64,000 nt of DNA from an uncultured Gemmatimonadaceae bacterium (GTDB taxonomy: Bacteria > Gemmatimonadota > Gemmatimonadetes > Gemmatimonadales > Gemmatimonadaceae), in assembly GCA_963822945.1 (NCBI GenBank), contig CAWGJO010000004.1, positions 32,001 to 96,000 on the forward strand, read 5' to 3'. The notes beneath the pieces were generated by a model. That model was given only the letters and a program-made list of their open reading frames with translations. It did not search any database and had not been told where the DNA came from. Shown piece after piece: positions 25,956-44,480 of the stretch; position 1 is the stretch's first letter; the number at the start of each line of letters is the position of its first letter. A program made the position numbers and the translations under genes.

Positions 25956-27929
25956 TTGGATACCTCACCGTACGCCGAGCTATTCCTCACCGAAAGCCGC
26001 GAACACGTTTCGGCGGTGAATCACTGGCTGTTGGAGTTGGAGCGTGGCGCCGGCGGGGACGAGCCGGTCCGCGAGCTCTTCCGCGCGGTGCACACGGTGA
26101 AGGGGATGAGTGCCACGATGGGGTACGCCGTCGTGGCGGAATTGTCGCACGAGATGGAGACCCTGCTCGATCGGGTCCGGCACCGGACCATGGAGATCAC
26201 GCCGGAGGTGATGGACGTGCTGTTTCGCGCCGCTGACGTGCTCGAGCAAGCCGTGGAGGCGTCGGTGGCCGGACGGCTGGACGACGTGCATCCCGAGGGG
26301 GTGCTCGATCGGCTGCGGGCCATGGGGCGCGCCACGCCGCGCGCGTCGGCCGCCATCGCGAGCCTGCCGTTGGACGAGCACCTGTGGACGGTGCCGGCTC
26401 CGGACGGCCAGGGCACGGTGGTGCGTGTGCGGCTGGCGCGAGAAGCGCCGTTGCGCGGCGTGCGGGCCTTTCTCATCGTCCAGCAGCTCGAGGCGCTGGG
26501 CACGGTCACCGGTGTGTCGCCATCGCTGGAGGCCCTGCAGGGCGACCGGTTCGAGTTCGACTTCGCGGTGCGCGTGCGGACCAAGGTGGCGGCGCAGGAG
26601 CTGGAGCGCGTCGTACGGGCTGCCGGCGACGTGATGCTGGTGGCCGTCGAGGGCGCCCCGGGGTTCGGGGCCGCTCCCGCGACGCCGGAGGAGCGCCCCT
26701 CGGGGCTGCTCGCCGCCGTCGAGAGCGCGGACGCCGAGGAGCCGCCGGCGAACGGCGACGCGCCGGCGCCGCCGGCCGCGCCGATCCGCGCCCCCCGCCA
26801 CGTCCGGGTGGACCAGCGCCGCCTGGATGCCCTGATGAACCTGATCGGCGAGCTGGTGATCGCCCGCGGCCGCCTGCTGCAGATCGGCGGCCGGCTGGCC
26901 GATCCCGCGCTCGACGAGACGCTGGCGCAGGCATCGCGATTGATCGCCGATTTGCGCGACGAGATCGTCACGAGCCGCATGGTGCCGGTGTGGCAGGTGT
27001 TCGACCGGTTTCCGCGCCTCGTGCGCGACGCCGCCCGCGGGCTGGACAAGGAGATCGACTTCTCGATCGAGGGCAAGGACATCGAACTCGACCGTTCGAT
27101 GCTCGACGAGATCGGCGATCCGATCGTGCACCTGCTGCGGAACGCCGTGGACCACGGCGTGGAGACCCCGGACGAGCGGGCGCGCCTGGGCAAGCCGCCG
27201 GCAGGCCGGCTCGTGCTCTCGGCGGTGCGCGATCGATCGGCGGTCGTCATCAAGGTGAGCGACGACGGGCGGGGCATCGACCGGGCGCGTGTGCTGGAGA
27301 AGGCGAAGGCGGCGGGGTTCGTGGACGCGAGCCGGACCGACCTCAGCGACGAGGAGCTGGTGCGGCTCGTCGCGCGCCCCGGCTTCTCGACGGCCGACCA
27401 GGTGACCGGGCTCTCGGGACGGGGCGTGGGGGTGGACGCGGTGATCTCCCGGGTGCGGGCGCTGGGTGGCTCGGTGGACATCAAGACGCAGGCGGGGCTC
27501 GGGACCACGGTCACGCTCCGGCTGCCCCTGACGCTGGCCATTCTCCGGGCGCTGATGTCGCGGGTGGCGGACGAGGTCTACGCGGTGCCGATGGCGCATG
27601 TGTGCGAGACGGTGGAACTGGCGGCCGAACGGCTGCGGACGCTGCGTGGCCGCGAGGTGATCACGGTGCGCGACGACGTGTTGCCGCTCCTGCGGCTCCG
27701 TGACATCGTGGGCCTGCCGCGGCGCGAGGCGGATGCGCGCGAGCACGTCGTCGTGCTGGAACTGGCGGACCGGCGGGCCGGACTGGTGGTGGATGGGTTG
27801 GCCGGGCAGCAGGAGATCGTGGTCAAGCAGTACGATCCGGTGCGGACACAGGTGCAGGCGTTCAGCGGCGCGACGATTCTCGGGGACGGTGCCCCGGCGC
27901 TGATCCTCGACGTGGGCAGTCTCTCCTGA
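25956..27929 (+). CDS. cheA: chemotaxis histidine kinase CheA (P1-P5)
   Basis: FRAVHTVKG, LMNLIGELVI, HLLRNAVDHG, DDGRGID, GRGVGVD, GATILGDG. Confidence 0.95.
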   Translation: MDTSPYAELFLTESREHVSAVNHWLLELERGAGGDEPVRELFRAVHTVKGMSATMGYAVVAELSHEMETLLDRVRHRTMEITPEVMDVLFRAADVLEQAVEASVAGRLDDVHPEGVLDRLRAMGRATPRASAAIASLPLDEHLWTVPAPDGQGTVVRVRLAREAPLRGVRAFLIVQQLEALGTVTGVSPSLEALQGDRFEFDFAVRVRTKVAAQELERVVRAAGDVMLVAVEGAPGFGAAPATPEERPSGLLAAVESADAEEPPANGDAPAPPAAPIRAPRHVRVDQRRLDALMNLIGELVIARGRLLQIGGRLADPALDETLAQASRLIADLRDEIVTSRMVPVWQVFDRFPRLVRDAARGLDKEIDFSIEGKDIELDRSMLDEIGDPIVHLLRNAVDHGVETPDERARLGKPPAGRLVLSAVRDRSAVVIKVSDDGRGIDRARVLEKAKAAGFVDASRTDLSDEELVRLVARPGFSTADQVTGLSGRGVGVDAVISRVRALGGSVDIKTQAGLGTTVTLRLPLTLAILRALMSRVADEVYAVPMAHVCETVELAAERLRTLRGREVITVRDDVLPLLRLRDIVGLPRREADAREHVVVLELADRRAGLVVDGLAGQQEIVVKQYDPVRTQVQAFSGATILGDGAPALILDVGSLS

Positions 27930-27941
27930 GGGAGCATTTCC

Positions 27942-28562
27942 ATGGAAGAGCTTCATTCCCTGAAGGCGCTGCAGTTGGATGCCCTGCGCGAGGTGGCCAA
28001 CATCGGCGCCGGGCATGCGGCGACGGCTCTCTCGCAGATGGTCGGCGGCACGATCATGATCAGCGTGCCGCGCATCAACATCCAGCGGCTCGACGCCATC
28101 GCCCCGATGGTGGCGGCCCCCGACGAGCCGGTCGCGGCGGTGCTGCTGCACATTCTGGGCGACCTGTCGGGCCGGACGCTCCTCGTGTTCCCCAAGGCGG
28201 CGGCGCTCCAGTTGGCCGAGGTGATGCTGCACCGGCCGAGCGGGTCGTCGACGGAGCTCGGGGAACTGGAGCAGTCGGCGATCAAGGAAGCCGGCAACAT
28301 TCTCAGCAGCGCGTACATGAACGCGCTCAGCGAATTCATGGGCATGCTCCTGCTGCCGTCGCCGCCGGCGCTCGCGGTGGACATGTCGGCGGCCGTCCTC
28401 ACCACGGCCTATCTGCAGTTCGGCACGAGCCGGGATTACGTGTTCTGCGTGGAGAGCGACTTCATGCTCCAGGGCGAGGCGGACCGCCTGCGCGGCTTCT
28501 TCCTGCTGCTGCCCGACCCGGCATCGTTGCAGGCCATTCTGCGCGCCATTCGCGTGACGTGA
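27942..28562 (+). CDS. cheC: CheY-P phosphatase CheC
   Basis: Two active-site repeats DALREVANIG and SAIKEAGNIL. Confidence 0.92.
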   Translation: MEELHSLKALQLDALREVANIGAGHAATALSQMVGGTIMISVPRINIQRLDAIAPMVAAPDEPVAAVLLHILGDLSGRTLLVFPKAAALQLAEVMLHRPSGSSTELGELEQSAIKEAGNILSSAYMNALSEFMGMLLLPSPPALAVDMSAAVLTTAYLQFGTSRDYVFCVESDFMLQGEADRLRGFFLLLPDPASLQAILRAIRVT

Positions 28563-28563
28563 T

Positions 28564-31254
28564 ATGGCCGCTTCGTCCCCTGGTTCCGACCACGACCGCG
28601 AGATTCTGAGGTCGTTTGCCCGACGGATCGACCCGTCGGACGCCGGCGCGCACAACAACCTGGGGGTGTTGTACTTCAACAAGGGACTGCACGAGGAAGC
28701 CGTGCAGGCCTTCATGCGGGCGCTGGAACTCGATCCCCGCATGGAAGTGGCCCAACGCAACATCGAGATCGCCTACTTCAACACCGGCTACTACGACCGG
28801 CGTGTCCCCGAGTTGCAGGAGCGGGTGCGCCGCGAACCGGCGGATCGGGACGCGCGGTGGGAGTTGGCCCGCACGTACGCGCTGCTCGGCGAGCATCAGC
28901 AGGCCGTGGAGGAGTTCTCGGCGCTGCTCGCGCACACGCCCGACGACGTGGGCGCGATCCTGCAGTTGGGGCTCGCCGAACGCGCGCTCGGCCACACCGA
29001 GCAGGCGCAGCAGTGGCTGGAGCGGGCGCGAGACCTCGACCCCGACAGTTCGCTGGTCCACTTCTATCTCGGCGAGGTGGCGTACAATCGCGGGCTCAAC
29101 GACGACGCGCTGGCGTCGCTGGAAATGGCGCTGGCCCTCAATCCCGACAACTACGACGCGCTCTACCTGATGGGATTCGTGCTCGGCGACATGGGGCGGC
29201 AGGAGGAGGCCCGGGCGCTGACCAACCGCGCCATCAAGCTCAATCCTACGCTGTCGCGCGCGCAGGCGAATCTCTCCATCGACCAGAACAAGCCGGAGCG
29301 CTACGAGGCGTTGGTCGGCGGACGCCGGTCGCATCGCATGGAGGTGTCCCCCGACGGCCAGCTGGCGCACTACAACCTCGGGCTCGCCTTCCGGCAGAAG
29401 GGATACTACCCCGAGGCGCTGCGCGAGTACCGCCTCGCGCTCGACCGTGGCGAGGACGAGGACCTCGTGCGGCAGGCGATGGCCGAGGTGCACCTGGTGA
29501 GTGGCGACGTGAGCGCGGCGCTGGCGCTCTACGACCGCCTCCTCGAGCGGATGCCCGCGAGCCCCAAGCTCTGGAACGAGCGCGGCGTCGCGTTGCACCA
29601 GGACGGGCGCGCGGCCGAGGCGGAGGAGAGCTATCGCCGCGCCATCGCCGCCGACCGGCGCTACGCGCTGGCCCACAACAATCTGGGGGTCGCGCTCGGG
29701 CAGTCGGGAGACGGGGACGCCGCCCTCGCCGAGTTCCGCGCGGCCCTGGACGGGCGGCCCGACCTCGTGAAGGCCCGGCTGAACCTCGCGCTGCTACTCT
29801 ACAAGGCGAAGCGGCTGCCGATGGCGCTCGAGGCGTATCGCCAGGTGCTGGCCACCGAACCGGAACATCCGGCGGCCTGGAACGGCGCCGGCGTGGTGCT
29901 CGCCGATTTTCAGAAGTTCGAGGACGCGCGGAACGCCTTCGCGCGGGCCATCCAGGCCCGGCCGCAGTATGCCGAGGCGCACTACAACCTGAGCTTCTGT
30001 CTCTCGAATCTGGGCGATTTCGAGGGTGCGTTGCGCGAGACCAAGCTGGCGCTGGAAATGGAGCCGTACTACATGGGACAGAAGTTCGAGCTCGCCATCG
30101 ACCTGCAGTACGAAGACCCGGATCTCTCCATTCAGCCCGACCTGGGCGGCGAGGCCCATACGGCAGACGCGATCGAGGCGTTCGACTTCGACGCCGGCCT
30201 ACTGGACTCCGTGTTCACGCAACTGGCGCCGGCGCCGGGGCCGCTGCCGCAGGTGGAGACGGACCCGTACAAGATGGCTGGCGACTTCCTGTCCAAGGGG
30301 CTCGTCGAACGGGCCCAGATGGAGGTGCGGCGGGCGCTGGCCCAGGGCGCCGACTGCGTGGCCGGCAATGTGCTGCTCGGCCAGACGTTCATGCGACAGG
30401 GGGTGTACGGGGAGGCGCTGGAGCGCTTCCGCGAAGCACGCCGCACCGCGCCCGACGACCCCGTGGCGATGCAAGGCGAGGCGCGCTGTCTGCTCAACCT
30501 CGGGCAGGGGGCGGCGGCGCTGCCCCTCGTCGAGAAGCTGGTGCTGCACGCCTCGGAAGACATCGACACGCTGATGCTCGCGGCCGGCGTCCGCGCCGCG
30601 GCGGGCGACCCCGCCGCAGCGCTGGCCACGCTCGACGCCGCCCGACGCGTGGCGCCGATGCGGGCCGACGTGCATCGCGAAATGGGCGACATCGCCCGGC
30701 GGCTGGGCGACCTGGAAGGCGCGATCATCAACTATCGCGACGCGCTGGCGCTCGATCCGCAGTTCGCCGGTGTGCGCTACGAACTGGCGCACCTGCTGAT
30801 CGAGAAACGACAGCTGGCCGCGGCGGAGTACGAACTGCTCTCGGCGCTGGAGACGGTGCCCACATACGCCCAGGCGACGCTGGAACTGGCCCGGCTGCGT
30901 CGCATGACCGGGCGGGCCGACTCGGCGCTGCCGCTGCTCATCGATCTCCTGCAGCGCGACCCGTACCACTTCGACGCCCTGATCGCGCTCGGGGAGACGC
31001 TGCTCGCGCTCGGGCGCAAGGAGGACGCGGTCACGGCGTTCGCCCGCGTACTCCGCTTCGATCCTCACCACGTGGGCGCCCTGTACCACGAAGGCGTCCT
31101 GTTCGCCGAACGCCGCCACTTTCGAGAGGCCATCGACCGGTGGGAGCGGGTGCGGACGCTGGCGCCGGCCACCGACTACGCCCGCCGGGCCCGCCGCGAG
31201 ATCCGCTCGGCCACCGACCTGCAACGCATCTTCGCTGAACGCGCAACCACCTGA
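28564..31254 (+). CDS. large cytoplasmic TPR-repeat protein (896 aa)
   Basis: Many TPR units (AHNNLGV, AHYNLG, A..LDP); no signal peptide seen. Confidence 0.88.
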   Translation: MAASSPGSDHDREILRSFARRIDPSDAGAHNNLGVLYFNKGLHEEAVQAFMRALELDPRMEVAQRNIEIAYFNTGYYDRRVPELQERVRREPADRDARWELARTYALLGEHQQAVEEFSALLAHTPDDVGAILQLGLAERALGHTEQAQQWLERARDLDPDSSLVHFYLGEVAYNRGLNDDALASLEMALALNPDNYDALYLMGFVLGDMGRQEEARALTNRAIKLNPTLSRAQANLSIDQNKPERYEALVGGRRSHRMEVSPDGQLAHYNLGLAFRQKGYYPEALREYRLALDRGEDEDLVRQAMAEVHLVSGDVSAALALYDRLLERMPASPKLWNERGVALHQDGRAAEAEESYRRAIAADRRYALAHNNLGVALGQSGDGDAALAEFRAALDGRPDLVKARLNLALLLYKAKRLPMALEAYRQVLATEPEHPAAWNGAGVVLADFQKFEDARNAFARAIQARPQYAEAHYNLSFCLSNLGDFEGALRETKLALEMEPYYMGQKFELAIDLQYEDPDLSIQPDLGGEAHTADAIEAFDFDAGLLDSVFTQLAPAPGPLPQVETDPYKMAGDFLSKGLVERAQMEVRRALAQGADCVAGNVLLGQTFMRQGVYGEALERFREARRTAPDDPVAMQGEARCLLNLGQGAAALPLVEKLVLHASEDIDTLMLAAGVRAAAGDPAAALATLDAARRVAPMRADVHREMGDIARRLGDLEGAIINYRDALALDPQFAGVRYELAHLLIEKRQLAAAEYELLSALETVPTYAQATLELARLRRMTGRADSALPLLIDLLQRDPYHFDALIALGETLLALGRKEDAVTAFARVLRFDPHHVGALYHEGVLFAERRHFREAIDRWERVRTLAPATDYARRARREIRSATDLQRIFAERATT

Positions 31255-31256
31255 CC

Positions 31257-32399
31257 ATGGCAATCGAAGGCCCCCTTCGCGAACTCGGCATTCACGACGT
31301 CTTCCAACTGCTCGATCTGAGCCGGAAGACGGGCACGCTTCGCGTGCGGTCCGAGCTGCGGGACGACGAGGGGGTGGTGCACTTCGCCAACGGCCGCGTG
31401 GTGCACGCCGGCATCCGCAGTCTGCCGACCTCGCTGGAGGGGATCCTCGTGTCGGCGGGCCGCGTCAGCGAGGCCGACGTCCAGGCGGCGCGGGAGCTGG
31501 TGGGACCCCGGGCCACGCCGGCGCAGCTCGCCGACGCCCTCGTGTCGAACGGGGCGGTGTCGCAGCGCGAAGTGGAACGGCAGGTGCGGCGGCAGATCGA
31601 ATCGGTGGTCTTCGAACTGATCTCGTGGCGCGAAGGGTTCTTCTCGTTCGAAGAGGTGGCCGCGCCCGACCTGCCCGTGGACAGCCGGATCAGCGTCTCG
31701 ACGGAATCCCTGCTCATGGAGGGGGCGCGGCGCATCGACGAGTGGTCGCGCATCGCGGACTCGGTGCCCAACCTCCAGATGGTGCCCGTGTTCGCGACGG
31801 CCGATGATGGTCAGGGCGCGCAGCTCGATCTCCTGCCGCACGAGTGGGAAGTGCTGACGATGATCGATGGAATGCGCGACCTGCGGGGCATCGCGGGCGG
31901 GCTGGGACGGAGCGAATTCGAGGTCGCCAAGATCGCCTACGGGCTGATCACCACCGGGGTGGTGGCCCTGGAGCCCCCGACGACCATACCGCGCGAGACC
32001 GAGGCGAGCCGGGAGGCCGGCGCTGAGGCGCTCCGGCGCGCGCGCGAATCGCTGGCCTGCGGCGAGTACGCGGCGGCGCTCGAGGCGGGGCGGGCCGCGG
32101 TCGAGACGCAGGGCACCGAGGCGCGGCTGGTGACCGCGCGCGCCCTCGTGAAACTGGAGCGCTACGCCGATGCCGCCGAGGAACTCCGGCGGGCCGTGTA
32201 TGCCGACCCGCTCACCGCGCGCGTGCACCTCGACCTCGGGTTCGCCGCCGTGCGCACGGGCGAGTTCGCCACCGCGCGCGCGAGTTGGGAGCACTTTTTG
32301 CGATTGGCATCCGGCGGGGCCGACGCCGCCCGCGCCCGCTCGGCACTCGACGCGCTCACCCGCCTCATGCACCTGCTGGAGGCGCACGCCGATGGCTGA
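31257..32399 (+). CDS. DUF4388 (PatA-N-like) domain plus TPR protein (1)
   Basis: IEGPLRELGIHDVFQLL..RKTGTL, WREGFFSF, SLLMEGARRIDEW, C-terminal TPRs. Confidence 0.85.
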   Translation: MAIEGPLRELGIHDVFQLLDLSRKTGTLRVRSELRDDEGVVHFANGRVVHAGIRSLPTSLEGILVSAGRVSEADVQAARELVGPRATPAQLADALVSNGAVSQREVERQVRRQIESVVFELISWREGFFSFEEVAAPDLPVDSRISVSTESLLMEGARRIDEWSRIADSVPNLQMVPVFATADDGQGAQLDLLPHEWEVLTMIDGMRDLRGIAGGLGRSEFEVAKIAYGLITTGVVALEPPTTIPRETEASREAGAEALRRARESLACGEYAAALEAGRAAVETQGTEARLVTARALVKLERYADAAEELRRAVYADPLTARVHLDLGFAAVRTGEFATARASWEHFLRLASGGADAARARSALDALTRLMHLLEAHADG

Positions 32400-34071: not shown

Positions 34072-34677
34072 GTGCCGCTCGTCAACTACGCTACCCGCGA
34101 GATCACCTGCAAGATCGTCTACTACGGACCCGGCCGGTCCGGAAAGACGACCAACTTGCATCACATCTACGGGCAGGTGCCGGAAGACCGGAAGGGGAAG
34201 ATGGTGTCGCTGGCGACGCAGACCGACCGCACCCTGTTCTTCGATTTCCTGCCGCTCGATCTCGGCACGATCTCGGGGTTCACCACCAAATTCCAGCTCT
34301 ACACGGTGCCGGGGCAGGTATACTACCAGTCCACGCGGAAGCTGGTGCTGCAGGGGGCCGACGGCGTCGTGTTCGTGGCCGACAGCCAGACGCGCCAACT
34401 CGACGAGAACATCGAGAGCTTTCAGGACCTGCACGCGAACCTGGCGGATCAGGGCGTCGACGTGCGGGCGGTGCCCCTCGTGCTCCAGTACAACAAGCAG
34501 GATCTGCCGCGCGACCTGATCATGGCCACCGAGGAGTTGCGCGACGCGATCAACTTTCGCGGCGTTCCCGATTTTCCGGCCGATGCCCTGCACGGGCCGG
34601 GGGTGTTCGAGACCCTGCGGGGCATCTCGGAACTCGTGTTGAAGCGCCTGAGTTCTCCCTCACGTGCGGCGAGGTAG
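34072..34677 (+). CDS. mglA: MglA small Ras-like GTPase
   Basis: REITCKIVYYGPGRSGKTTNL, DRTLFFDFLPL, TVPGQV, DGVVFVADSQ, QYNKQD. Confidence 0.95.
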   Translation: MPLVNYATREITCKIVYYGPGRSGKTTNLHHIYGQVPEDRKGKMVSLATQTDRTLFFDFLPLDLGTISGFTTKFQLYTVPGQVYYQSTRKLVLQGADGVVFVADSQTRQLDENIESFQDLHANLADQGVDVRAVPLVLQYNKQDLPRDLIMATEELRDAINFRGVPDFPADALHGPGVFETLRGISELVLKRLSSPSRAAR

Positions 34678-34680
34678 CGC

Positions 34681-36639
34681 GTGTCGTTGGACACCCGGAT
34701 GCGATTCGAGCACTTCGAGGCGGGCGCGGCCAATCACGAGGCCGTGTCCGCGGGGCGCGCCGTCGCCCGATCGCCGGGGCAGAAGCACAACCCGCTCACC
34801 TTCTTCGGGGTCGCGGGAGTCGGCAAGACGCATCTGATGCAGGCCATCGGGCATGCCGTGGTGGAAGCCCAGCCGGCCCTGCGCGTGGAGTATCAGACGG
34901 CGGACGAATTCGCGAAGCAGCTCCACGCCGCCGTCGCCGCCAGCCAGACCGACGAGTACATCCGGGGATGGGCGCGCGTGGACGTCCTGCTGCTGGATGA
35001 CATCCAGGGGCTCGCCGACCAGCGCGAGGCGCAGTCGGAGCTGCTGCGGCTGCTCGAGGCGATGCAGAGCATGGAGCGCCAGGTGGTGATGACCAGCGAC
35101 CGTCCGCCGGCCGAGATCGCGGGGTTCGATCCCGCCCTGGTCTCGCGGATCGCCGGCGGCCGGATCGTGGAGATCGGCGCGCCGGACGCTGCGACGCGCG
35201 TGGCGATTCTCAGGGCACGGTGCCGGGAGCGGGACGTGATCCTGGAGCCGGGCGTGGTGGAGGAGATCGGGCGCATCGAGACCGGCAACGTGCGCGAGCT
35301 GCACGGACTGCTCCATCGCATCGTCGACTTCCAGTCGCTGGGCGACGAGCCGGTGCACGCCGACGACGTGCTGACTCTGCTCGACCACGCGCCCGAAGCG
35401 CGGGCGGCAGTGGGCGACTCGGCGCCGTCCGCGGCCACGGGTGCCCTCGATTTCGAGAGCTTCCTCACCGACATCGCGAGCGCCGTGACGGCGCACGTCG
35501 AAGGGTGGAAGTCGCACGTGGCCGAGGCCGTGGCGGGGTGGCAGTCGGCGGGATACCGCACCAAGGTGCTGGAGCGGCTGCTGGACGAGCCGTCGCCGCC
35601 CCCCAACTACGAGGCCCTGCTGCGCGGATTCGGCGCCACGGTTCGCCGGCTCAAGGAGCTGGAGTCCGAGGCCGTCGAGGCCGATCCGTCGGTGGCCGGC
35701 CACGACGTGTTCCGCGACCCCGAGCGCATGCGCGAGGCCGAGGCCATGGTGCAGCGCGCGCGGGCGGGCGCCGTGGACCTGCCCGGCCCCTCGGTGGAGT
35801 TCTCACGCGCCGGGTTCGAGGTCGGCAAGTCGAATCAGGCGGCCGTGCGTGCGGCCGACGCCGTGGCGGCCGAACCGGGCAGCCGGTACAACCCCCTGGT
35901 GATCATCGGTCCCGGCGGGACGGGGAAGACGCACCTGCTCAACGCGCTCGGCCACGAATTGGTGAACGCCAGCGGAGGCGCGGCCGCGGTGGCGTGCGTG
36001 ACCGGCCAGCAGTTCGCCGACGAGTTCATCGCCGCGCTGCGCGACGGCACGCTCAATCAGTGGCGCCGGCGGTACCGGCGCGTGGACGCGCTGCTGATGG
36101 ACGACCTCCAGGCGGTGGCCGGGAAGGAGCGCACCCAGGACGAGGTGTTCGAGCTGTTCGGCGACCTGCTCGACGCCGGCAAGCAGATCGCGTGCACGGC
36201 GGCGCAGCTGCCTCGGGACATGACCGGCCTCGACGAGCGCCTCCGCGTACGGTTCGAGGGCGGGCTCGTGGTGGAGTTGGCGCCTCCGGACGTCGCGATG
36301 CGCGAGCAGTTGTACCGGCGGTTCCTGGACGGGGTGGCCGCCGATCAACTCGACCCGCTGGCGCGCTACCTCGCGTCGCGGCCCGCCGCCGGCGTACCCG
36401 ACATCATCGACACGATCCATCGGCTGTCCGTATCGGCCGACGCGGTGGGGGCGCCGCTGTCGTTGGACGTGGCGCGGCGGGAACTCGAGGGGCCGGAGCC
36501 CGTGGCGGCCCGGATGCCGACGCCGGTGAGCGCCGCGCCGGTGGTCCGCGCGGCCAGTGACATGTTCTTCCTGGACGACGAGAAGGTGGTCTGGGAGTTG
36601 CGCGATGTCGCGTCGCGCGTGGTCGAGGAGCTGGGCTAG
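34681..36639 (+). CDS. protein with two tandem DnaA/Hda-type AAA+ domains, lacking DnaA domains I and IV
   Basis: NPLTFFGVAGVGKTHL/LLLDDIQ/TSDRPP/NVRELHG and YNPLVIIGPGGTGKTHL/LLMDDLQAVAGKERTQDE/ERLRVRFEGGL. Confidence 0.88.
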   Translation: MSLDTRMRFEHFEAGAANHEAVSAGRAVARSPGQKHNPLTFFGVAGVGKTHLMQAIGHAVVEAQPALRVEYQTADEFAKQLHAAVAASQTDEYIRGWARVDVLLLDDIQGLADQREAQSELLRLLEAMQSMERQVVMTSDRPPAEIAGFDPALVSRIAGGRIVEIGAPDAATRVAILRARCRERDVILEPGVVEEIGRIETGNVRELHGLLHRIVDFQSLGDEPVHADDVLTLLDHAPEARAAVGDSAPSAATGALDFESFLTDIASAVTAHVEGWKSHVAEAVAGWQSAGYRTKVLERLLDEPSPPPNYEALLRGFGATVRRLKELESEAVEADPSVAGHDVFRDPERMREAEAMVQRARAGAVDLPGPSVEFSRAGFEVGKSNQAAVRAADAVAAEPGSRYNPLVIIGPGGTGKTHLLNALGHELVNASGGAAAVACVTGQQFADEFIAALRDGTLNQWRRRYRRVDALLMDDLQAVAGKERTQDEVFELFGDLLDAGKQIACTAAQLPRDMTGLDERLRVRFEGGLVVELAPPDVAMREQLYRRFLDGVAADQLDPLARYLASRPAAGVPDIIDTIHRLSVSADAVGAPLSLDVARRELEGPEPVAARMPTPVSAAPVVRAASDMFFLDDEKVVWELRDVASRVVEELG

Positions 36640-36640: not shown

Positions 36641-38257
36641 ATGGCCATCAAGGGCAGCTTGAAGGAGGCCAGCCTCCCCGACGTGCTCCAGCTCCTGGCG
36701 ATGGGCCGGAAGACCGGGTGTCTGAGCGTCAACCACCGGACGAACTTCGGCTACATCTATTTCGACAAGGGGCGCATTTCGTACGCGTCGATCGTGAACC
36801 GGCGGGACCGGTTGGGCGACATGCTGGTGAAGAACGGCATCATCTCCGCCGAGCAGCTCAAGTCGGCCATCGAGGCCCAGGATCAGGAGCGCGAGCGGCG
36901 CATCGGCGAACTGCTGGTGGAGATGGGCTACCTGTCGCGCGACGCGCTGCGCCAGCACATCCGCGAGCAGATCGAGGAGGCGGTGTACTTCCTGTTCACC
37001 TGGAATCAGGGCTCGTTCAACTTCGAGGCCGACGTCCAGCCGGACGAGCAGGAATTCCTGGTGTCGATCAATCCCGAGTCGCTGCTGCTCGAAGGCGCGC
37101 GACGCGTGGACGAGTGGACGCTCGTCGAGAAGAAGATTCCCACGTTCGACATCGTGTTCGAGGTCGATCGGCCGAAGATCCTGGCCAGCGACCTCGATCT
37201 GACGCCGGAGCAGCGGGGGCTGCTGGAGCTGGTCGACGGCCGGCGGGACGTGCAGCAGATCATCGACGCCTCGGGCATGGGCGAGTTCGAAGTGGGGAAG
37301 GTGCTGTACGGCCTCGCCACCACCGGCTTCCTGCACCGCATCGGCACGTCGAAGGCCGGGGACGCCCAGGTGTCGGAAGCCCGGGTGCAGGAGCACTACA
37401 ACCTCGGCGTCGCGTTCTACAAGACGGGGATGTTCGACGAAGCGGTGCGCGAGTTCCGCCGCGTGATGGACCTCAAGCCCAACGACCCGTCGGCGCAGTT
37501 CTACCTCGGGCTGGTGCAGCTGCGCCAGGAACGGTGGCACGATGCGCTGGCGACGTTCGAGGCCGCGGTGGCGCGCCCCGGCGCCACCGCCGCGGTGTAT
37601 CACAACCTCGCGTACGCACTCGAGCGGCTGGGGCGCCTGGCCGAGGCGCAGCGGGCGCTGCAGGAGGCGTCGGCCCGCAGTCAGGGGGCCAGCCCGCAGA
37701 TCGAGACCTCGATCGGCATCGTCGCGCTGCGCTCCGGCGATCTGGCGGCCGCTGACGAGGCGCTGACGGCCGCGCGGCCGCTGTGGCCCCGGGCGCCGTC
37801 GGCGGCCTGGTATCACTATGCGGCGCTCACGGCGGCGCTGCTCGGCGACCTCGGGCGTGCCCAGACCATTCTCGACGAAGCGGTGGGCGCGCATCCGCAC
37901 AGCGCCGTGCTCTACAACAATCTCGCCGTGGTGCGCGAACGCCAGAACGCCGGCGAGGCGGCGGCGGCGGCGCTCGACCGGGCGCTGTCGGAGGATCCCT
38001 CCGTGCCGCAGGTGCACAAGAACCTTGGCGACGTGGCCTACCGCGCCGGGCGGTTCGACGAGGCGCTCGAGTCGTACCAGCGCGCCATCAAAGCGAAGCC
38101 GGATCTCGGGGACGACGTCTACCTCAAGCTCGGGAACATCAAGTTCCGCCAGCAGCAGAAGGAGGAGGCGCTGCGGCTCTGGCAGCGCGCGCTCGAACTC
38201 GATCCCACCAACGCCATCGTGCGCACCAACCTCGACGCCGTGCGGCAGGCGCTGTGA
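36641..38257 (+). CDS. DUF4388 domain plus TPR protein (2)
   Basis: IKGSLKEASLPDVLQLL..RKTGCL, RLGDMLV, WNQGSFNF, SLLLEGARRVDEW, multiple TPRs. Confidence 0.87.
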   Translation: MAIKGSLKEASLPDVLQLLAMGRKTGCLSVNHRTNFGYIYFDKGRISYASIVNRRDRLGDMLVKNGIISAEQLKSAIEAQDQERERRIGELLVEMGYLSRDALRQHIREQIEEAVYFLFTWNQGSFNFEADVQPDEQEFLVSINPESLLLEGARRVDEWTLVEKKIPTFDIVFEVDRPKILASDLDLTPEQRGLLELVDGRRDVQQIIDASGMGEFEVGKVLYGLATTGFLHRIGTSKAGDAQVSEARVQEHYNLGVAFYKTGMFDEAVREFRRVMDLKPNDPSAQFYLGLVQLRQERWHDALATFEAAVARPGATAAVYHNLAYALERLGRLAEAQRALQEASARSQGASPQIETSIGIVALRSGDLAAADEALTAARPLWPRAPSAAWYHYAALTAALLGDLGRAQTILDEAVGAHPHSAVLYNNLAVVRERQNAGEAAAAALDRALSEDPSVPQVHKNLGDVAYRAGRFDEALESYQRAIKAKPDLGDDVYLKLGNIKFRQQQKEEALRLWQRALELDPTNAIVRTNLDAVRQAL

Positions 38258-39081
38258 TGACGGTCGCCGAGCCGCAGGACGAGGACTTTCAGGCCCTGCT
38301 CGACAAGATCTCGCGCGATCGGGGATTTCACTGCGCCAGCTACAAGGCCACCTGCCTGCGCCGCCGGGTCGGGGTGCGCATGCGGGCACGCGGGCTGCAC
38401 CGCTACGTGGACTATGCGGGCCTGCTCGATGCCGACCTGGGGGAATACGACCTGCTGCTCGACGCGCTGACGATCAACGTCACGAAGCTGTTCCGGAATC
38501 CCGAGGTGTACCACGCCATGCTGCGCGACGTGGTGCCGGTGGTGTGGGACGCCGCGCCGTCGCGAATTCGGGTGTGGAGCGCCGGATGCGCGTCGGGCGA
38601 GGAGCCGTATTCGCTGGCCGCCCTGTTCCACCTGCACGCGGCGGCGCGTGGCGAACTCCACCGGCTGCCGCGCGTGGAGATTCTGGGCACCGACATCGAC
38701 CGGCGCAGCCTGGCGGCGGCGGAGTGCGGCGAGTTCGAGGAGCGCGATTTCAGCGAGACGCCCGAGGCCTGGCGGTCCGCGTATTTCGCGCCCGCGGCGC
38801 CGTTCACGGTGGTCCCCGAGTTGCGCCGGCTGGTGAAGTTCCGCCAGCATGATCTACTGCGCGAGCCCCCGCCGCAGGGCGAGCACGACTTGATCGTGTG
38901 CCGAAATGCGATCATCTACTTCGATCGGGTGTCGCAGGAGCGGCTGTTCGAATCCTTTTACTCGGCGTTGGCCCCCGGAGGGTTCCTGGTACTCGGCAAG
39001 GTGGAAACGCTCTTCGGTCGTGCGCGGCAACTCTTCCGTCCCGTGGACGCTCGCGAACGGATCTTCGTGCGGCCCGCATGA
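38257..39081 (+). CDS. cheR: chemotaxis methyltransferase CheR
   Basis: TINVTKLFRN, RVWSAGCASGEEPYS, GTDID, CRNAIIYF, GGFLVLG. Confidence 0.93.
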   Translation: MTVAEPQDEDFQALLDKISRDRGFHCASYKATCLRRRVGVRMRARGLHRYVDYAGLLDADLGEYDLLLDALTINVTKLFRNPEVYHAMLRDVVPVVWDAAPSRIRVWSAGCASGEEPYSLAALFHLHAAARGELHRLPRVEILGTDIDRRSLAAAECGEFEERDFSETPEAWRSAYFAPAAPFTVVPELRRLVKFRQHDLLREPPPQGEHDLIVCRNAIIYFDRVSQERLFESFYSALAPGGFLVLGKVETLFGRARQLFRPVDARERIFVRPA

Positions 39082-39560
39082 GCGAGCAACGCGTCGGGAT
39101 CGCCGATCTCGCGGTCGCCGCGGGGGAGGGAACGCTCTGCACGCTCGGGCTCGGGTCGTGCGTGGCGATCGTGCTCTACGACGCGGAGGCGCGGGTGGGC
39201 GGGCTGGCGCACGTCCTGTTGCCCGAGCCGGGCATGTCGCGCCTGCACGACAACCCGGCGCGCTTCCCGGAGACCGCCGTGCCCGCCCTCATCGCACGGA
39301 TGCGGGAGCTCGGCGCCGATCCGGCCCGGATGACGGCCCGCCTCGTGGGCGGGGCCAGCATGTTCTCCAGTCTGCTGCCCCGCGGCACGCCGACCATCGG
39401 CGGGCGCAACGTCGACTCCTCGCGGCAGGCCCTGCAGCGGGCCGGCATCACGATTGCCGGCGAGGACGTGGGGATGGAGCACGGGCGCAGCGTCTATCTG
39501 CACATCGCCGATGGCCAGGTCGAAGTGCGCTCGCTCGCGCGAGGGAGTCGTGTCCTCTAA
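39078..39560 (+). CDS. cheD: chemoreceptor glutamine deamidase CheD
   Basis: TLGLGSCV, GGLAHVLLP, LVGGASMF, IGGRN, EDVG...GRS. Confidence 0.92.
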   Translation: MSEQRVGIADLAVAAGEGTLCTLGLGSCVAIVLYDAEARVGGLAHVLLPEPGMSRLHDNPARFPETAVPALIARMRELGADPARMTARLVGGASMFSSLLPRGTPTIGGRNVDSSRQALQRAGITIAGEDVGMEHGRSVYLHIADGQVEVRSLARGSRVL

Positions 39561-40617
39561 GCCCTCCGTCCTGGTGGTGGACGACAGCGCGCTCATGCGG
39601 CGCGTGATCGCGGAGCTGGTCACCGAATCGGAGGAGTTCACCGTGGTCGGCGTGGCGCGGAACGGGCGGGAGGCGATTGCCCACGTGCTGGCGCTCAACC
39701 CCGACCTCGTGACACTCGACATCGAGATGCCGGAGATGGACGGGCTGCAGGCGCTGGCGCAGATCATGCGCGATGCTCCCCGCCCGGTGGTGATGCTGAG
39801 CGGGGCCGAGACGATGGATGGGCGCGATGCCGCGCTGCGCGCGCTGGAACTCGGCGCCGTGGACTTCGTGCGCAAGCCGTCGGGCCCCATCAGCCTCGAC
39901 CTCGCCGTGGTGGGCGAGCGGTTGCGGGGCGCGCTCCGGGCCGCCGCGCAGGCGAACCTGCGCGGCCTGCAGACGCCGGTACGGCGCCCCGGCACGGGAC
40001 GCCGCGGGGGCGTGCGGCCGGCCGCGTCCCGACCCAGGCGCGCCGTGGCGATCGCGGCCTCGACCGGCGGCCCGCGCGCGCTCACGCAGGTCCTGCCGGG
40101 GCTGCCGGCGGCTCTCGACGCCGCGGTGCTCGTGGTGCAGCACATGCCGCCCGGGTTCACGCGCAGCCTGGCGCAGCGGCTCGACGCGATGGGGCCGCTG
40201 CCGGTGCACGAGGCCGAGGCGGGTCAGATCGTCCAGAGCGGGCATGTATACGTGGCGCCGGGCGGCAAGCACATGCGCGTGGCCGACGACGCCCAACCGG
40301 TGATCGTGCTCGACGAGACGCCGCCCGTGTGGGGCGTGCGACCGGCGGCCGATCCGCTCTTCCGGTCGGTGGCGGCCCTGTTCGGCGAGCGGTGCGTGGG
40401 GGTGGTACTCACCGGCATGGGGCGCGACGGCGCCGACGGGCTGCGGGCCATTCGCGATGCGGGGGGCCGCCGCGTCGTGCAGGACCGGGACACCTCGATC
40501 ATCTACGGCATGCCGCACGCCGCCCTGGAGGCCGCGGGCGCCGATCGCGTGGCGCCGCTGGCGAGCGTCGCGGCCGCCATCGTCGCGCTGCTGGCCACGG
40601 CGGGTGAGCCGGCGTGA
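39550..40617 (+). CDS. cheB: chemotaxis methylesterase/response regulator CheB
   Basis: Receiver domain VVDDS..TLDIEMP; ASTGGP, VQHMP, LTGMGRDG. Confidence 0.95.
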   Translation: MSSKPSVLVVDDSALMRRVIAELVTESEEFTVVGVARNGREAIAHVLALNPDLVTLDIEMPEMDGLQALAQIMRDAPRPVVMLSGAETMDGRDAALRALELGAVDFVRKPSGPISLDLAVVGERLRGALRAAAQANLRGLQTPVRRPGTGRRGGVRPAASRPRRAVAIAASTGGPRALTQVLPGLPAALDAAVLVVQHMPPGFTRSLAQRLDAMGPLPVHEAEAGQIVQSGHVYVAPGGKHMRVADDAQPVIVLDETPPVWGVRPAADPLFRSVAALFGERCVGVVLTGMGRDGADGLRAIRDAGGRRVVQDRDTSIIYGMPHAALEAAGADRVAPLASVAAAIVALLATAGEPA

Positions 40618-41411
40618 TCGACGAACACTGGGGCCTGCTGCGCAAACCGTTCGCGAACACGCCGGATCCGGCGTTCGTGTACCACTCCCCGGTGTTCGAC
40701 GAAGGATACGCCCGCCTGCTGTACGACGTCACGGATCTGCGGGGGGGCCTGTCGCTGGTCACGGGCGAGATCGGGTGCGGCAAGACGATGCTCGTCGAGG
40801 CGCTGCGCGCCCGGCTCGGCGGCACTGCCTACGACCCCTGGGTCGTGGAGTATCCGCGCCTCACCGGTGCGCAGTTGCTGCAGTTCGTCGCTGCGGCGGC
40901 CGCGCTGCCCAACCCGCCGAAGAACAAGCCGGCGCTGGTGGCGGCGCTGCGGGGCCGGCTGGCCGAGCTGCACGCCGGGGGACGGCGCCCCGTGCTGATC
41001 GTGGACGAGGCGCAGCTGGCGAGTCCGAGCCTGCTCGAGGAACTGCGGCTGCTCACGAACTTCGAGGACCGGACCGACAAGCACCTCCACGTCGTGTTGC
41101 TGGGGCAGCCGGAGTTGCGCGAGCGCGTCGTGAAGCGTCCGCAGATCGACCAGCGCGTGAGCCTTCGGTTCCATCTCGACCCACTCGATGCCGGTGACGT
41201 GCAGGCGTACGTCCTGCATCGGCTGCGTGTGGCGGGCGCGATGCACGAGATCTTCACGGCCGAGGCGCTGGCCGCCCTGGCGGCGCGGAGCGGTGGTGTT
41301 CCGCGCGTCGTGAACAACCTGGCCATGCAGGCGCTGTTCGTTGGGGCGATGCGCGGATTGCCGCGCGTCGATGAGCGACTGATACACGACGTGGCGGACG
41401 ACCGGCAATGA
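40614..41411 (+). CDS. ExeA/GspA-family AAA ATPase (ATPase domain only)
   Basis: WGLLRKPFANTPDP, GEIGCGKT, LIVDEAQ, LEELRLL, LLGQPEL, SGGVPRVVN. Confidence 0.88.
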   Translation: MIDEHWGLLRKPFANTPDPAFVYHSPVFDEGYARLLYDVTDLRGGLSLVTGEIGCGKTMLVEALRARLGGTAYDPWVVEYPRLTGAQLLQFVAAAAALPNPPKNKPALVAALRGRLAELHAGGRRPVLIVDEAQLASPSLLEELRLLTNFEDRTDKHLHVVLLGQPELRERVVKRPQIDQRVSLRFHLDPLDAGDVQAYVLHRLRVAGAMHEIFTAEALAALAARSGGVPRVVNNLAMQALFVGAMRGLPRVDERLIHDVADDRQ

Positions 41412-42103
41412 AGACACCCACCATCAGCTACCGCGAATGGCTCCACCGGAAGCCGACGCCGCCGGCGTCGGGCGCGCCGGTGGCGGAGCCCGGTCTGCCG
41501 TCTCCGGAAACGCCCGCGCCTGCTGGCGGGGAGCCCGACGCGCAGCGTGCCGAGCCGGTGGAGGTCGTCGGTCCCGCGCAGCCGCGGTCCGCCGCAGCGC
41601 AGGCGGCGGTCTCCGTCGCAGCGCAGGCGGCGGTCCCCGTCGCAGCGGCGGCGTCCGCCGTACCCGCGGCGAAAGCGGTGGAGCATCTGGTGTTCCGGGT
41701 GGGGCGCGAGTTGTTCGCGCTGCCCCTCGACGTGGTCGAAGAAGCGCTCGACATCGACCGCATCCAGCGCATCCCCGAGATGAACCCCACGATGTTGGGG
41801 GTGCTCACGCTGCGCGGCGCCACCGTGCCGCTGTACGCGCCGTCGATTCCGCTGGGCGTGCCCGACAGCGACCACCGGGCGGCACTCGTCTTCGTTCGGG
41901 CGAGAGGGATGGTGGCCCTCGCCGTGGACGATGTGGACGACGTGCTGGAGATCGCCGCCGACGACGTGCAGCGCCCGCCGCTGGATTTCACCGACGGCGT
42001 GTTGTCGGGCGTCGCGCGTCGTGGCGCGGACCTCATCGGCGTGCTGGATGCCGACGCGCTCATCGCCGCCTGTCGCGCCGAACCGGTGCTGGAGACCGCA
42101 TGA
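41408..42103 (+). CDS. cheW: CheW (2) with Pro/Ala-rich N-terminal extension
   Basis: LVFRVGRELFALPL, RIPEM..MLGVLTLRG. Confidence 0.82.
   Translation: MKTPTISYREWLHRKPTPPASGAPVAEPGLPSPETPAPAGGEPDAQRAEPVEVVGPAQPRSAAAQAAVSVAAQAAVPVAAAASAVPAAKAVEHLVFRVGRELFALPLDVVEEALDIDRIQRIPEMNPTMLGVLTLRGATVPLYAPSIPLGVPDSDHRAALVFVRARGMVALAVDDVDDVLEIAADDVQRPPLDFTDGVLSGVARRGADLIGVLDADALIAACRAEPVLETA
41593..41647 (+). repeat. in-frame 24-bp tandem repeat (AAQAAV[S/P]V) in the CheW2 linker
   Basis: Two copies differing at one base plus a partial third. Confidence 0.85.
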
Positions 42104-42582
42104 CCAAGCCTCGTATTGCCAAGATCGTCTGGTTCCGCCTGGGCCCGGACTACTTCGCGGCCGACATCTTCTCGGTGGAGCGCGTGCTCCGCTACCAGCC
42201 GCCGACCACGGTGCCCAACGTGCCCGAATGGATCGAAGGCGTGATCGAGTATCAGGGGCGCGTGGTCCCGGTGGTGAGCCTGCGCCGCCGCTTCCAGCTC
42301 CCGGCCGTGCCGGCCACGCCCGAGACCCGCGTGCTGATTCTCAAGTCGGGCGACGAGTGGGTGGGTGTGGTGGTCGACGCCGTGCTCGAAGTCGCCAGCT
42401 TCGACGAGGCGCTGCTGTCGCCGCCGCCGCCGCTCTTCCGGGGGCTCGCCGGGGAATACCTGCGCGGCATCGTCCGCCTGAACGACCGTCTGCTGATCTA
42501 TCTCGACGTCGACCGGCTGCTGTCGTCCGACGACCGGTTGGCCCTGGAGCGCGCGACCGAGGAGGCGCTGCCGAATGGCTGA
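42100..42582 (+). CDS. cheW: CheW (3)
   Basis: WFRLG, VERVL, VPNVPEWIEGVIEYQGRVVPVVSL, VGVVVDAVLEV. Confidence 0.88.
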   Translation: MTKPRIAKIVWFRLGPDYFAADIFSVERVLRYQPPTTVPNVPEWIEGVIEYQGRVVPVVSLRRRFQLPAVPATPETRVLILKSGDEWVGVVVDAVLEVASFDEALLSPPPPLFRGLAGEYLRGIVRLNDRLLIYLDVDRLLSSDDRLALERATEEALPNG

Positions 42583-43420
42583 TGCCCCGCTCGGCGAATA
42601 CCGGGCACAGTACGCGGCGTTGGACTCGCGGCTCGACGCGCCGACCGCCGGCGCCGAACGCGATGCACTGAAGGCCGAGATCGTGGCGTTCTTCCGGCAG
42701 GTGGAGCGGGACGTCGTCGAACTCACGAAGCTGCGCGACGAGATCAAGACGCTCGTGGACAAGTGGAAGGCGCTTGCCGCGCCGTCGCTGGCCCCCGAGT
42801 TCAGCGCGGCGCGGCCGGTGGTTCACGCCGACCACATCGGGGCGTCCACGTTCATCGAGAAGGGCTGGAGCCGGCTGTCGCTGGGCGAGTACGAGGCGGC
42901 GGAGGCGGCCCTGCGCAAGGCCATCGAACTGTCACCCAACGATCCGCAGTCCGAAGCGCTGCTCGGCTGGGCGCTGATGCTCCAGGAGAAGTACGACGAC
43001 GCGCTGCTGACCTTCCAGCAGGTGCTCACCCGCGAACCGATGAACGCGTTGGCGCGCATCAACGTCGGCTATATCTGCCTCAAGAAGCGGATATTCGGGG
43101 AGTCCATCGAACACCTGTCCAAGGCCATCCGGCTGGACAACGACAAGAAGGCGACGCTGTACGCGCACTTCTACCTGGGGCTGGTGTATCTGGAGCGCGA
43201 CATGTTCGAGGACGCCCAGACCTTCTTCCAGAAGACCATCGCGCTGGGACCCAACTTGATCGAGGCCTACTACGAACTGGGACGCGCGTACTGGTTCAAC
43301 GGCCAGCGCGACGAGGCGATGCAGACGTGGCGCGACGGATTCGCCATGAACAAGTTCAATCCATGGGGAAAGCGGTGCGCCGAAGTCCTGAAAACGGTGG
43401 AGGCGGGCGGGGAGCCATAG
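42575..43420 (+). CDS. coiled-coil plus TPR protein
   Basis: N-terminal heptad-like helix followed by several TPR units. Confidence 0.8.
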   Translation: MADAPLGEYRAQYAALDSRLDAPTAGAERDALKAEIVAFFRQVERDVVELTKLRDEIKTLVDKWKALAAPSLAPEFSAARPVVHADHIGASTFIEKGWSRLSLGEYEAAEAALRKAIELSPNDPQSEALLGWALMLQEKYDDALLTFQQVLTREPMNALARINVGYICLKKRIFGESIEHLSKAIRLDNDKKATLYAHFYLGLVYLERDMFEDAQTFFQKTIALGPNLIEAYYELGRAYWFNGQRDEAMQTWRDGFAMNKFNPWGKRCAEVLKTVEAGGEP

Positions 43421-43452
43421 CCGGACGGCGCGCCCGCGCGCCGGTGCGTGCC

Positions 43453-44418: not shown

Positions 44419-44451
44419 CTGCCGTAACCGCCCGTAGTGACTAGGGTTGCC

Positions 44452-44480
44452 TTGACACTAACTTTGGCGGTCCATAGTGT
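44452..44480 (+). promoter_or_regulatory. sigma70-type promoter, probably leaderless
   Basis: TTGACA-N17-TAGTGT, then 8 nt to ATG 44489. Confidence 0.7.

Follow-up and report, generated by a model that had tools for sequence, protein, structure and literature searches.

A tandem DnaA-type AAA+ protein encoded in a chemosensory and MglA polarity gene array of Gemmatimonadota

The gene, its domains and its operon

The stretch of DNA analyzed here (the window: 64,000 nucleotides of contig CAWGJO010000004.1, from an uncultured soil-type bacterium of the Gemmatimonadaceae) harbors, within a long array of chemosensory (Che) and cell polarity genes, a gene for a protein of 652 amino acids that consists of two tandem AAA+ ATPase modules of the type found in the replication initiator DnaA and that we denote dDnaA. 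The gene (34681..36639 on the forward strand, which also carries the features of the array described below) starts with GTG and yields a stop-free translation, and its third-codon-position G+C content (GC3) of 0.93 is like that of the neighboring genes in a window with a G+C content of 70%. A profile made from both modules and the genome's own DnaA delimits module 1 at residues 1-232 (34681..35376), which align with residues 113-345 of that DnaA, and module 2 at residues 369-601 (35785..36483), where matches to DnaA structures in the PDB extend over residues 374-533 and 366-593. Between them lies a conserved linker domain (residues 252-368; 35434..35784) which, judging from the helices modeled by AlphaFold2 (AF2) and from the pattern of conservation, forms an antiparallel helical bundle.

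The relationship of both modules to domain III of DnaA is apparent from several searches. The Pfam model Bac_DnaA (PF00308) matches the protein in two stretches (E-value (E) 5.2e-88; 293.8 bits against a cut-off of 23), the search of the whole genome with this profile gives two matches for dDnaA, at 152 and 148 bits, and the NCBIfam model of DnaA itself scores 400 bits, above its cut-off of 343.9, again over two stretches. The modules share 39-45% identity with DnaA domain III, and their nearest relatives of solved structure are examples of this domain, in particular, that of B. subtilis (8bv3, E 1.6e-42 by sequence), with which the fold of module 1 aligns at a target-normalized Foldseek template-modeling (TM) score of 0.94 and a root-mean-square deviation (rmsd) of 1.6 A over 233 columns. 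The arrangement of two domain-III modules joined by a helical linker, proposed in an earlier note that was made from the sequence alone, is thus borne out.

The same is true of the absence of the other DnaA domains. The sole match of Bac_DnaA_C, the model of the DNA-binding domain IV, in the whole genome is the true dnaA, an ordinary gene for 471 amino acids located on another contig; only 51 residues are left in dDnaA after module 2, and neither Bac_DnaA_C nor DnaA_N is among the Pfam matches listed for the protein (the best 25 of 43 families). At the N-terminal side, residue 3 of dDnaA aligns approximately with residue 114 of the resident DnaA, which leaves no space for domain I, and domains I and II are both absent; the N-terminus, including the start, is conserved across the homologs. 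Where the earlier note erred was the other end of the protein, which it took to be FFLDDEKVVWE: this segment corresponds to residues 630-640 and is followed by 12 more residues of a conserved tail that is considered below.

The AF2 model of the dDnaA monomer has a mean per-residue confidence (pLDDT) of 85.5 and a predicted TM score (pTM) of 0.45, with the packing of the modules against each other not confidently placed, so the fixed arrangement implied by the earlier description of the protein as a covalent pseudo-dimer is unsupported. Fold matches of the whole model with the double AAA+ ATPases of the p97 type (Type II) are not taken here as a sign of relationship: p97 chains align with dDnaA over approximately 650 columns, but with an rmsd of 22-28 A and TM scores of 0.26-0.29. 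The linker domain is conserved in 23 relatives, including forms with a single module, and its three helices, when predicted separately by AF2, have a mean pLDDT of 82. There is no Pfam match at E<=0.1 for residues 251-370 (only a chance-level match with E 0.23) nor any Pfam match for the last 49 residues of dDnaA, and a search of a protein atlas with the linker gave no usable match. An affinity with the spectrin-like repeat of EzrA was rejected, given that the best PDB hit has a Z score of 6.3 and is followed by assorted helical bundles, a level that is characteristic of a common three-helix arrangement and is not specific.

The part of the array upstream of dDnaA begins with genes for CheW, CheY, CheA, CheC/X, a TPR protein of 896 amino acids and a PATAN-TPR protein (24929..32399). 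Three Roadblock-type genes that overlap by 4 nucleotides come next (32392-34051), namely, a TPR+Roadblock gene (32392-33234; Pfam E 9e-9), a Roadblock gene (33231-33578; 1.6e-8) and a Roadblock-like gene (33575-34051; 1.6e-3); all three were delineated with the GC3 frame profile and differ from the longest open reading frames (ORFs) in this region (32412-33578 and 33170-34051), which are frame artefacts of the high G+C content. Directly upstream of dDnaA is mglA (201 amino acids; 34072..34677), with E 1.1e-73 to the solved Myxococcus MglA (6h17); the spacer that follows its stop codon (34675-34677) is 3 nucleotides, not the 4 given in the earlier note. The array thus encodes together an MglA GTPase and a Roadblock partner, as expected of an MglA/MglB polarity module. 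The gene immediately downstream, 1 nucleotide after the stop codon of dDnaA, encodes a protein of 538 amino acids (36641..38257) in which a PATAN domain (DUF4388) with a helical insertion is combined with TPRs; its start is the ATG at 36641 and not position 36557. The rest of the array (38260..46577) encodes CheR, CheB, an AAA_22 protein, CheW and two TPR proteins, so that the Che complement comprises CheA, CheY, CheC/X, CheR, CheB and three CheW-domain genes; in the window and in most relatives, the array abuts the dcw cell-division cluster (mraW at 46633, ftsI). The AAA_22 (ExeA-like) ATPase gene, at 40614-41411 between cheB and cheW, is matched in two of the first 20 related loci (L025 and L026).

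The neighborhood of dDnaA was compared, using tblastn, across 20 loci picked for diversity and eight more picked for odd search results, of which 27 hold the dDnaA gene. The order of genes upstream (Che, TPR, PATAN, three Roadblock genes, MglA) and downstream (PATAN-TPR, CheR/CheB) is conserved among the relatives, and adjacency to dcw was seen at L029, L032, L035, L039-L043 and L048-L050. The PATAN-TPR gene lies directly downstream of dDnaA at every locus where the contig continues (26 of 26), and mglA is upstream in 25 of the 27, the two exceptions, both from family f7, keeping only the pair of the ATPase and the PATAN-TPR gene. This pair is the most persistent unit of the array. At locus L049, the ATPase gene is gone, and the PATAN-TPR gene that comes after mglA is short of approximately 75 C-terminal residues. 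As a separate observation, at locus L043 (genome G127, 7872-11013) the ATPase gene is split into ORFs of 267 and 473 amino acids and the PATAN-TPR gene matches in part, so here the pair may be decaying together.

Two contigs of one metatranscriptome run, from close relatives, span the junctions of dDnaA with its neighbors: record 11 covers 34567-34776, across the mglA/dDnaA junction, with 6 differences, and record 12 covers 36551-36676, across the dDnaA/PATAN-TPR junction, with 10 differences. These contigs are a weak hint of transcription, with carry-over of DNA being possible, and a contig that reaches across genes is not proof of a single transcript. None of the public sequencing runs contains half or more of the sampled words (the best share in a DNA run is 0.41, and one RNA run has 0.11), and the coverage in the RNA run has gaps across most of the dDnaA gene, which makes it uninformative.

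The C-terminal tail and the PATAN-TPR protein

The part of dDnaA that is best conserved outside the ATPase cores is the C-terminal tail, DMFFLDDEKVVWELRDVASRVVEELG (residues 627-652; 36559..36636). Here and below, conservation is given for a set of 121 sequences of close homologs and, where indicated, for a wider alignment of 78 rows spanning 30-98% identity. The tail follows a pattern with an EK-x-x-W core and then R-x-x-E-E at the very C-terminus; five of its core positions are kept in 118-120 of the 121 sequences. E634 and K635 are present in 119 each and W638 and R646 in 120 each, and these four are kept in 70-77 of the 78 rows of the wider alignment. It is retained also in those variants of the protein that have lost the lid of module 2 or the entire module, and it is unstructured in the AF2 monomer, with pLDDT of approximately 40-60.

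When tail residues 612-652, with the alignment of the family, were modeled together with the downstream PATAN-TPR protein, represented by an alignment of 20 rows, the complex scored 0.78, compared to 0.24 for the best of three controls. As a rough calibration only, given that own alignments were used, 116 of 157 solved complexes come up to the mark for such scores, compared with two of 215 mismatched pairs. The contacts are shared between the three runs to at least 64%, and the pLDDT of the partner is at least 55. In the model, tail residues 629-652 run along the concave face of the TPR array, over partner residues 283-493 (the predicted tail-binding groove; 37487..38119); the contacts with the lowest predicted error join tail residues 634-638, that is, the core of the conserved motif, with TPR residues 396-464, including K460 and N461, which are at least 90% conserved, and the invariant D464. 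The complex model supports the prediction that the tail of dDnaA binds the product of the adjacent gene.

The predicted docking of the tail has an analog in the C-terminal EEVD peptides of Hsp70 and Hsp90, which dock into TPR co-chaperones. The dDnaA tail is likewise short, conserved and acidic and is likewise predicted to lie in a TPR groove, and the relative at locus L037 ends in EEVD. However, there is no sequence relationship between the two, and the dDnaA tail has a longer predicted interface (629-652) and a distinct EK-x-x-W core.

ATPase motifs, variants and spread of the family

Module 1 has the ATPase motifs of DnaA domain III. The lysine of Walker A (GVAGVGKTH, residues 43-51; 34807..34833) and both aspartates of Walker B (VLLLDDIQ, residues 102-109; 34984..35007) are present in all 121 homologs; the aspartate of the sensor I region (VVMTSDRPP, residues 135-143; 35083..35109) is found in 120; the arginine finger of box VII, R156 (DPALVSRIAGG, residues 150-160; 35128..35160), has an equivalent in 115; and the arginine of sensor II (GNVRELHG, residues 202-209; 35284..35307) is present in 112, with seven gaps. 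The first arginine of box VII is replaced with A152 in the lineage of the window (arginine at this position in 107 of the 121 sequences, alanine in seven). The equivalent positions in DnaA we take to be, in E. coli numbering, R285 for the arginine finger, R334 for sensor II, D269 for sensor I and R281 for the other box VII arginine.

In module 2, the Walker A lysine (GPGGTGKTH, residues 410-418; 35908..35934) is conserved in 120 sequences, the two Walker B aspartates (ALLMDDLQ, residues 470-477; 36088..36111) in 120 and 119, respectively, and both arginines of box VII (DERLRVRFEGG, residues 518-528; 36232..36264) are kept, R520 in 120 and R524 in 114. By contrast, two positions are degenerate in the window's protein. 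At sensor I, it reads IACTAAQLP (residues 503-511; 36187..36213) against a family consensus of LVF[AC]SDRPP, with an alanine in place of the aspartate that is present in 102 of the 121 homologs (glutamate in eight others) and in 50 of the 78 rows of the wider alignment. At sensor II, it reads GVPDIIDT (residues 571-578; 36391..36414) against SVREIIGT, with a proline instead of the arginine that is found in 101 of the 121 and in 64 of the 78.

All motifs listed in the earlier note are exact, both those for which it gave coordinates (GVAGVGKT at 34807-34830, GPGGTGKT at 35908-35931, NVRELHG from 35287 and GVPDIID from 36391) and LLLDD, LLMDD and ERLRVRF. The asymmetry of the modules that was deduced from them is real in the window's copy. 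It is not, however, a property of the family: the loss of the sensor II arginine, which would have to be conserved among homologs for the earlier reading to stand, is confined to 20 of the 121 sequences, none of which falls below 59% identity with dDnaA of the window. Judging from these alignments, the degeneration of module 2 is a local specialization of the window's lineage and not the design of the family, and the proposed division of labor between one catalytic and one regulatory site could apply, at most, to this lineage. With the sensor I aspartate and the sensor II arginine lost, module 2 in this lineage probably binds ATP but hydrolyzes it poorly.

These replacements raise the question of whether dDnaA is a pseudo-ATPase, an inert scaffold in which the AAA+ folds are a structural spacer that brings the linker and the tail to their partners, so that nucleotide turnover is irrelevant. 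Besides the loss of the sensor residues of module 2 and of the first box VII arginine of module 1, such a role would fit the loss of the module 2 lid in several lineages and the absence of the whole module at four loci (see below). Against it stands the retention, in both modules, of the Walker A lysine and the Walker B aspartates in 119-121 of the 121 homologs, and of the arginine fingers in 114-115, which speaks for selection on nucleotide binding and on a contact in trans. These patterns argue for a working, self-associating ATPase rather than a mere spacer, and we consider the inert scaffold improbable.

A word-indexed search, in which 8000 candidates were scored, yielded 1760 proteins with E<=0.001. 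The best 120 are proteins of 573-662 amino acids, 50-98% identical to dDnaA; those with an organism name are all from Gemmatimonadota and are annotated as members of the DnaA/Hda family or as ATP-binding proteins. An exhaustive search of 1.84 billion representatives extended the full-length, two-module relatives down to 30% identity; among ten relatives that were looked up, two full-length ones (644 and 660 amino acids) have an organism name on the cluster, in both cases Gemmatimonadales. Within the phylum, we surveyed 201 sampled genomes, including four unpublished ones (G057, G097, G157 and G182) that contribute to these tallies alone, and detected dDnaA at a threshold of E<=1e-60 in 128. 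The matches come from 27 of the 39 genomes of the window's own family (f1), 92 of the 96 of f2, all three of f3, three of the four of f4, two of the 23 of f7 and one of the three of f8, with none in the 33 genomes of f5, f6 and f9-f12. Among the 73 genomes where dDnaA is below this threshold, 71 still show a match of approximately 1e-40, that is, at the level of DnaA, and a few have divergent or single-module forms. Thus, dDnaA is characteristic of a single order with a few neighbors rather than of the phylum as a whole.

This distribution bears on the most obvious function of a DnaA relative. The earlier note favored a replication regulator, a double module that caps or inactivates filaments of DnaA-ATP via its arginine fingers, in the manner of Hda, and so ties polarity or the chemosensory state to initiation. 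Certain features of dDnaA are compatible with such a role: the modules are close enough to DnaA domain III to pass the NCBIfam cut-off for DnaA, the conservation of both arginine-finger positions makes mixed oligomers with DnaA chemically plausible, and the array adjoins the dcw cluster and has a DivIVA gene upstream (17940-18443). Hda, like dDnaA, is a DnaA-related AAA+ protein without domain IV, but it has one module and acts via a clamp-binding N-terminus. By contrast, dDnaA begins at domain III, and no clamp-binding peptide of the Hda type is seen by eye in its first 10 residues; the Hda model TIGR03420 gives 137.4 bits, below its cut-off of 194.8, and the HdaA models give 39 and 28.7 bits against cut-offs of approximately 300. 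The models of the IstB/DnaC helicase loaders fall below their cut-offs as well (IS21_help_AAA, 106 against 200 bits; DnaC, 38 against 357; DnaI, 59 against 228). At none of the 27 loci does dDnaA adjoin dnaA or dnaN, as judged by the flanking genes, and a third or so of the sampled genomes (73 of 201) lack it at the above threshold, nearly all with a DnaA-level match. Given also that the tail is predicted to bind a signaling scaffold, the replication role, unsupported by score, motif, context or phyletic pattern, appears quite unlikely. Compared with DnaA itself, dDnaA shares the fold of domain III with Walker A and B, sensor I, box VII and sensor II and differs in having two modules per chain, in lacking domains I, II and IV, in the addition of the three-helix linker and the predicted docking tail, and in its location, which by the flanking genes is not a replication locus, in a genome with a separate, complete dnaA.

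The family includes several departures from the two-module architecture. Module 2 is missing at four loci, those of G049 (f5), G106 and G188 (both f8) and G084 (f1); these single-module proteins, in which module 1 is combined with the linker domain and the tail, are encoded in the same slot of the operon. In some lineages, module 2 lacks the lid and has long acidic spacers instead, with the tail still in place. What persists in almost all forms examined is module 1, the three-helix linker domain and the tail; P0198, a distant two-module relative, has a response-regulator receiver domain in place of the tail. In addition, one protein, P0203, combines two DnaA-type modules with the DnaA C-terminal DNA-binding domain.

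In an unrooted tree of 86 modules, the module 2 sequences form one group (support 96) and the module 1 sequences together with the single-module forms another (support 99), with the ordinary DnaAs between them. The two modules accordingly do not appear as sisters in this unrooted tree, which speaks against a recent origin of module 2 as a copy of module 1. The single-module forms of f5 and f8 are basal in the module 1 group, whereas that of f1 is nested inside it; this topology fits, without proving it, an ancestral protein with one module that gained a second one, followed by one later loss.

A metagenomic contig from run X3 is of separate interest: it skips 1115 nucleotides of the window, between 35007 and 36123, and has 11 other letters instead. 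The net loss of 1104 nucleotides (368 codons) is the exact offset between the modules, so the contig may represent an in-register one-module hybrid or else an assembly artefact; its shorter side is 22 letters and its depth is 2.5.

The variants are relevant also for the possibility that dDnaA is a positioning ATPase anchored on the nucleoid or on single-stranded DNA (ssDNA), in which the ssDNA-binding surface of domain III, in the ATP state, would tether the chemosensory or polarity complex to the chromosome or partition it there. ParA-like proteins position some chemosensory arrays, and the array described here includes no ParA-type gene and no receptor gene of its own. The alignment shows that the region of the initiator-specific helical insert has retained its length in both modules, and after Walker B of module 2, most homologs keep a DnaA-like GKERTQ segment. 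The persistence of single-module and lid-less forms speaks against such anchoring, for which we see little likelihood.

A possible polarity function and a parallel in a pilus operon

The PATAN-TPR protein that is predicted to hold the tail might also sense a second messenger. Wang et al. (2016; PMC5013675) describe MshEN, a receptor domain for cyclic di-GMP (c-di-GMP) in ATPases of the MshE/PilB type, and print a relaxed pattern for its 24-residue motif. The helical insertion in the PATAN domain contains two MshEN-like segments of this length in tandem (residues 56-79 and 86-109; 36806..36967), both of which fit the relaxed pattern in the form printed in the accessible part of that paper and miss the strict one at one and three positions; the spacer is 6 residues rather than 5.

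Genuine MshEN domains are joined to DnaA-type modules in another group of bacteria. In two very long proteins among the distant matches, P0201 and P0210, a true MshEN domain precedes a pair of DnaA-type modules. The source of P0201 is a Ca. Fermentibacteria metagenome-assembled genome (L053, JAUXFG010000024.1, 4309-22556), where four adjacent MshEN genes are located in a pil operon, between the gene for the prepilin peptidase (pilD) and pilB, pilT and pilC. The four genes encode MshEN with a DnaA-type module (983 amino acids), MshEN alone (436 amino acids), MshEN with a DnaA-type module (409 amino acids) and MshEN with two DnaA-type modules (1993 amino acids); the MshEN domains are supported by Pfam (E 1e-7 to 1e-19), and the DnaA-type fusions lack the DnaA C-terminal domain. 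These proteins have the AAA+ modules in common with dDnaA but neither its linker nor its tail, and in the unrooted tree their modules group with ordinary DnaAs, so we regard the Fermentibacteria case as an independent parallel and not as a set of relatives. The similarity to the MshEN receptor of the MshE/PilB type differs accordingly between the two systems: in Fermentibacteria, a genuine MshEN lies beside pilB, whereas in the window, the motif-like segments are inside the PATAN domain of a separate protein, have a spacer of 6 instead of 5 and have no Pfam match.

Considering the operon context and the complex model, we lean toward the view that dDnaA is a DnaA-derived tandem AAA+ ATPase that functions as a dedicated subunit of the chemosensory/MglA polarity module and not as a replication factor; the same two lines of evidence favor the fallback of the earlier note, a repurposed scaffold ATPase. 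In this reading, the tail would sit in the groove on the concave face of the TPRs in the downstream PATAN-TPR protein, which has the MshEN-like c-di-GMP motif, and the AAA+ modules tethered in this manner would bind ATP and assemble with one another head to tail via the arginine fingers, as DnaA does. The result would be an ATP-timed assembly or scaffold that might link MglA/Roadblock and Che signaling to some polar machinery, with type IV pili as the most likely candidate. The pilus or polarity output is suggested by the Fermentibacteria parallel, by the PATAN response regulators that work with the pilus motor in cyanobacteria (10.1101/2021.06.11.447907, in the part accessible) and by the action of MglA with the TPR effector SgmX (PMC7519303 and PMC7668184, likewise in part); the window's genome encodes PilB- and PilT-like ATPases elsewhere.

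Several observations weigh against this interpretation or parts of it. The score of the complex is the confidence of a model and not a measurement, and the docking was modeled with the downstream PATAN-TPR protein only, whereas the array encodes five other TPR proteins. Conservation had to be rejected as support for the interface, given that approximately 10 of the 50 interface residues are at least 90% conserved compared to approximately 55 of the 289 in the rest of the TPR region, which is no enrichment. With a pTM of 0.45 for the monomer, the head-to-tail assembly is drawn by analogy with DnaA. The Pfam MshEN model (PF05157) has no match in the partner protein at E<=1, and the Fermentibacteria proteins, as indicated above, lack the linker and the tail and group with ordinary DnaAs. 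There is no gene for a receptor (methyl-accepting chemotaxis protein, MCP) in the Che array, the four MCP matches of the genome being on other contigs, nor is there a pilus gene within the array, which makes the output machine a guess; given the adjacency to the dcw cluster, a division-related output is conceivable.

The closest studied counterpart of the array appears to be the combination of Frz, MglA/MglB and SgmX in Myxococcus xanthus, with which it shares MglA, Roadblock proteins, a Che pathway and large TPR proteins. In Myxococcus, however, the equivalent genes are scattered, and none of them encodes an AAA+ ATPase, whereas in the window they comprise one array that also encodes PATAN proteins and dDnaA. 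To our knowledge, ATPase domains of the DnaA type have been described almost exclusively in replication initiation and its direct regulators (DnaA and Hda), helicase loaders and transposition helpers, and none of the studied models of MglA-type polarity includes an AAA+ timer. In dDnaA, such domains have shed every DNA-recognition domain and have become part of a signaling operon. Should dDnaA be an ATP-timed scaffold, it would follow that an AAA+ timer can belong to MglA-type polarity systems and that the same solution arose separately beside pilus motors. We tentatively suggest that the DnaA-type module was co-opted on at least two independent occasions as an ATP-driven switch for the control of type IV pili or polarity linked to c-di-GMP sensing; no less tentatively, the two recruitments would be the tail-tethered tandem beside MglA in Gemmatimonadota and the direct fusion to MshEN in the pil operon of Fermentibacteria. 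If true, AAA+ regulators would gain a new functional class that operates outside DNA replication, and the lineage-specific loss of the hydrolysis residues of module 2 provides natural "mutants" for comparison.

A search of the full-text literature found no description, either for MglA/PATAN/Che operons or for Gemmatimonadota, of an AAA+ protein that is tandem or DnaA-like. The accessible part of PMC4316618 reports PATAN genes near mglA and no ATPase of the dDnaA kind, and its supplementary table S2 may list the neighborhood. New here are the restriction of the motif asymmetry to certain lineages, the tail that nearly all forms keep, with its predicted docking, the single-module and receiver-fused variants, the module tree and the Fermentibacteria parallel.

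Two observations on other parts of the window can be added. A gene for a class I tRNA synthetase of 864 amino acids (19300-21894) is followed 5 nucleotides later, in another frame, by a separate ORF of 218 amino acids that corresponds to DUF5915 (21900-22556). This domain is usually the C-terminus of such class I synthetases; the pair may be a split gene or the product of a frameshift. Further downstream, at 22907-24011, two genes for signal peptidase II (Peptidase_A8) are arranged in tandem.

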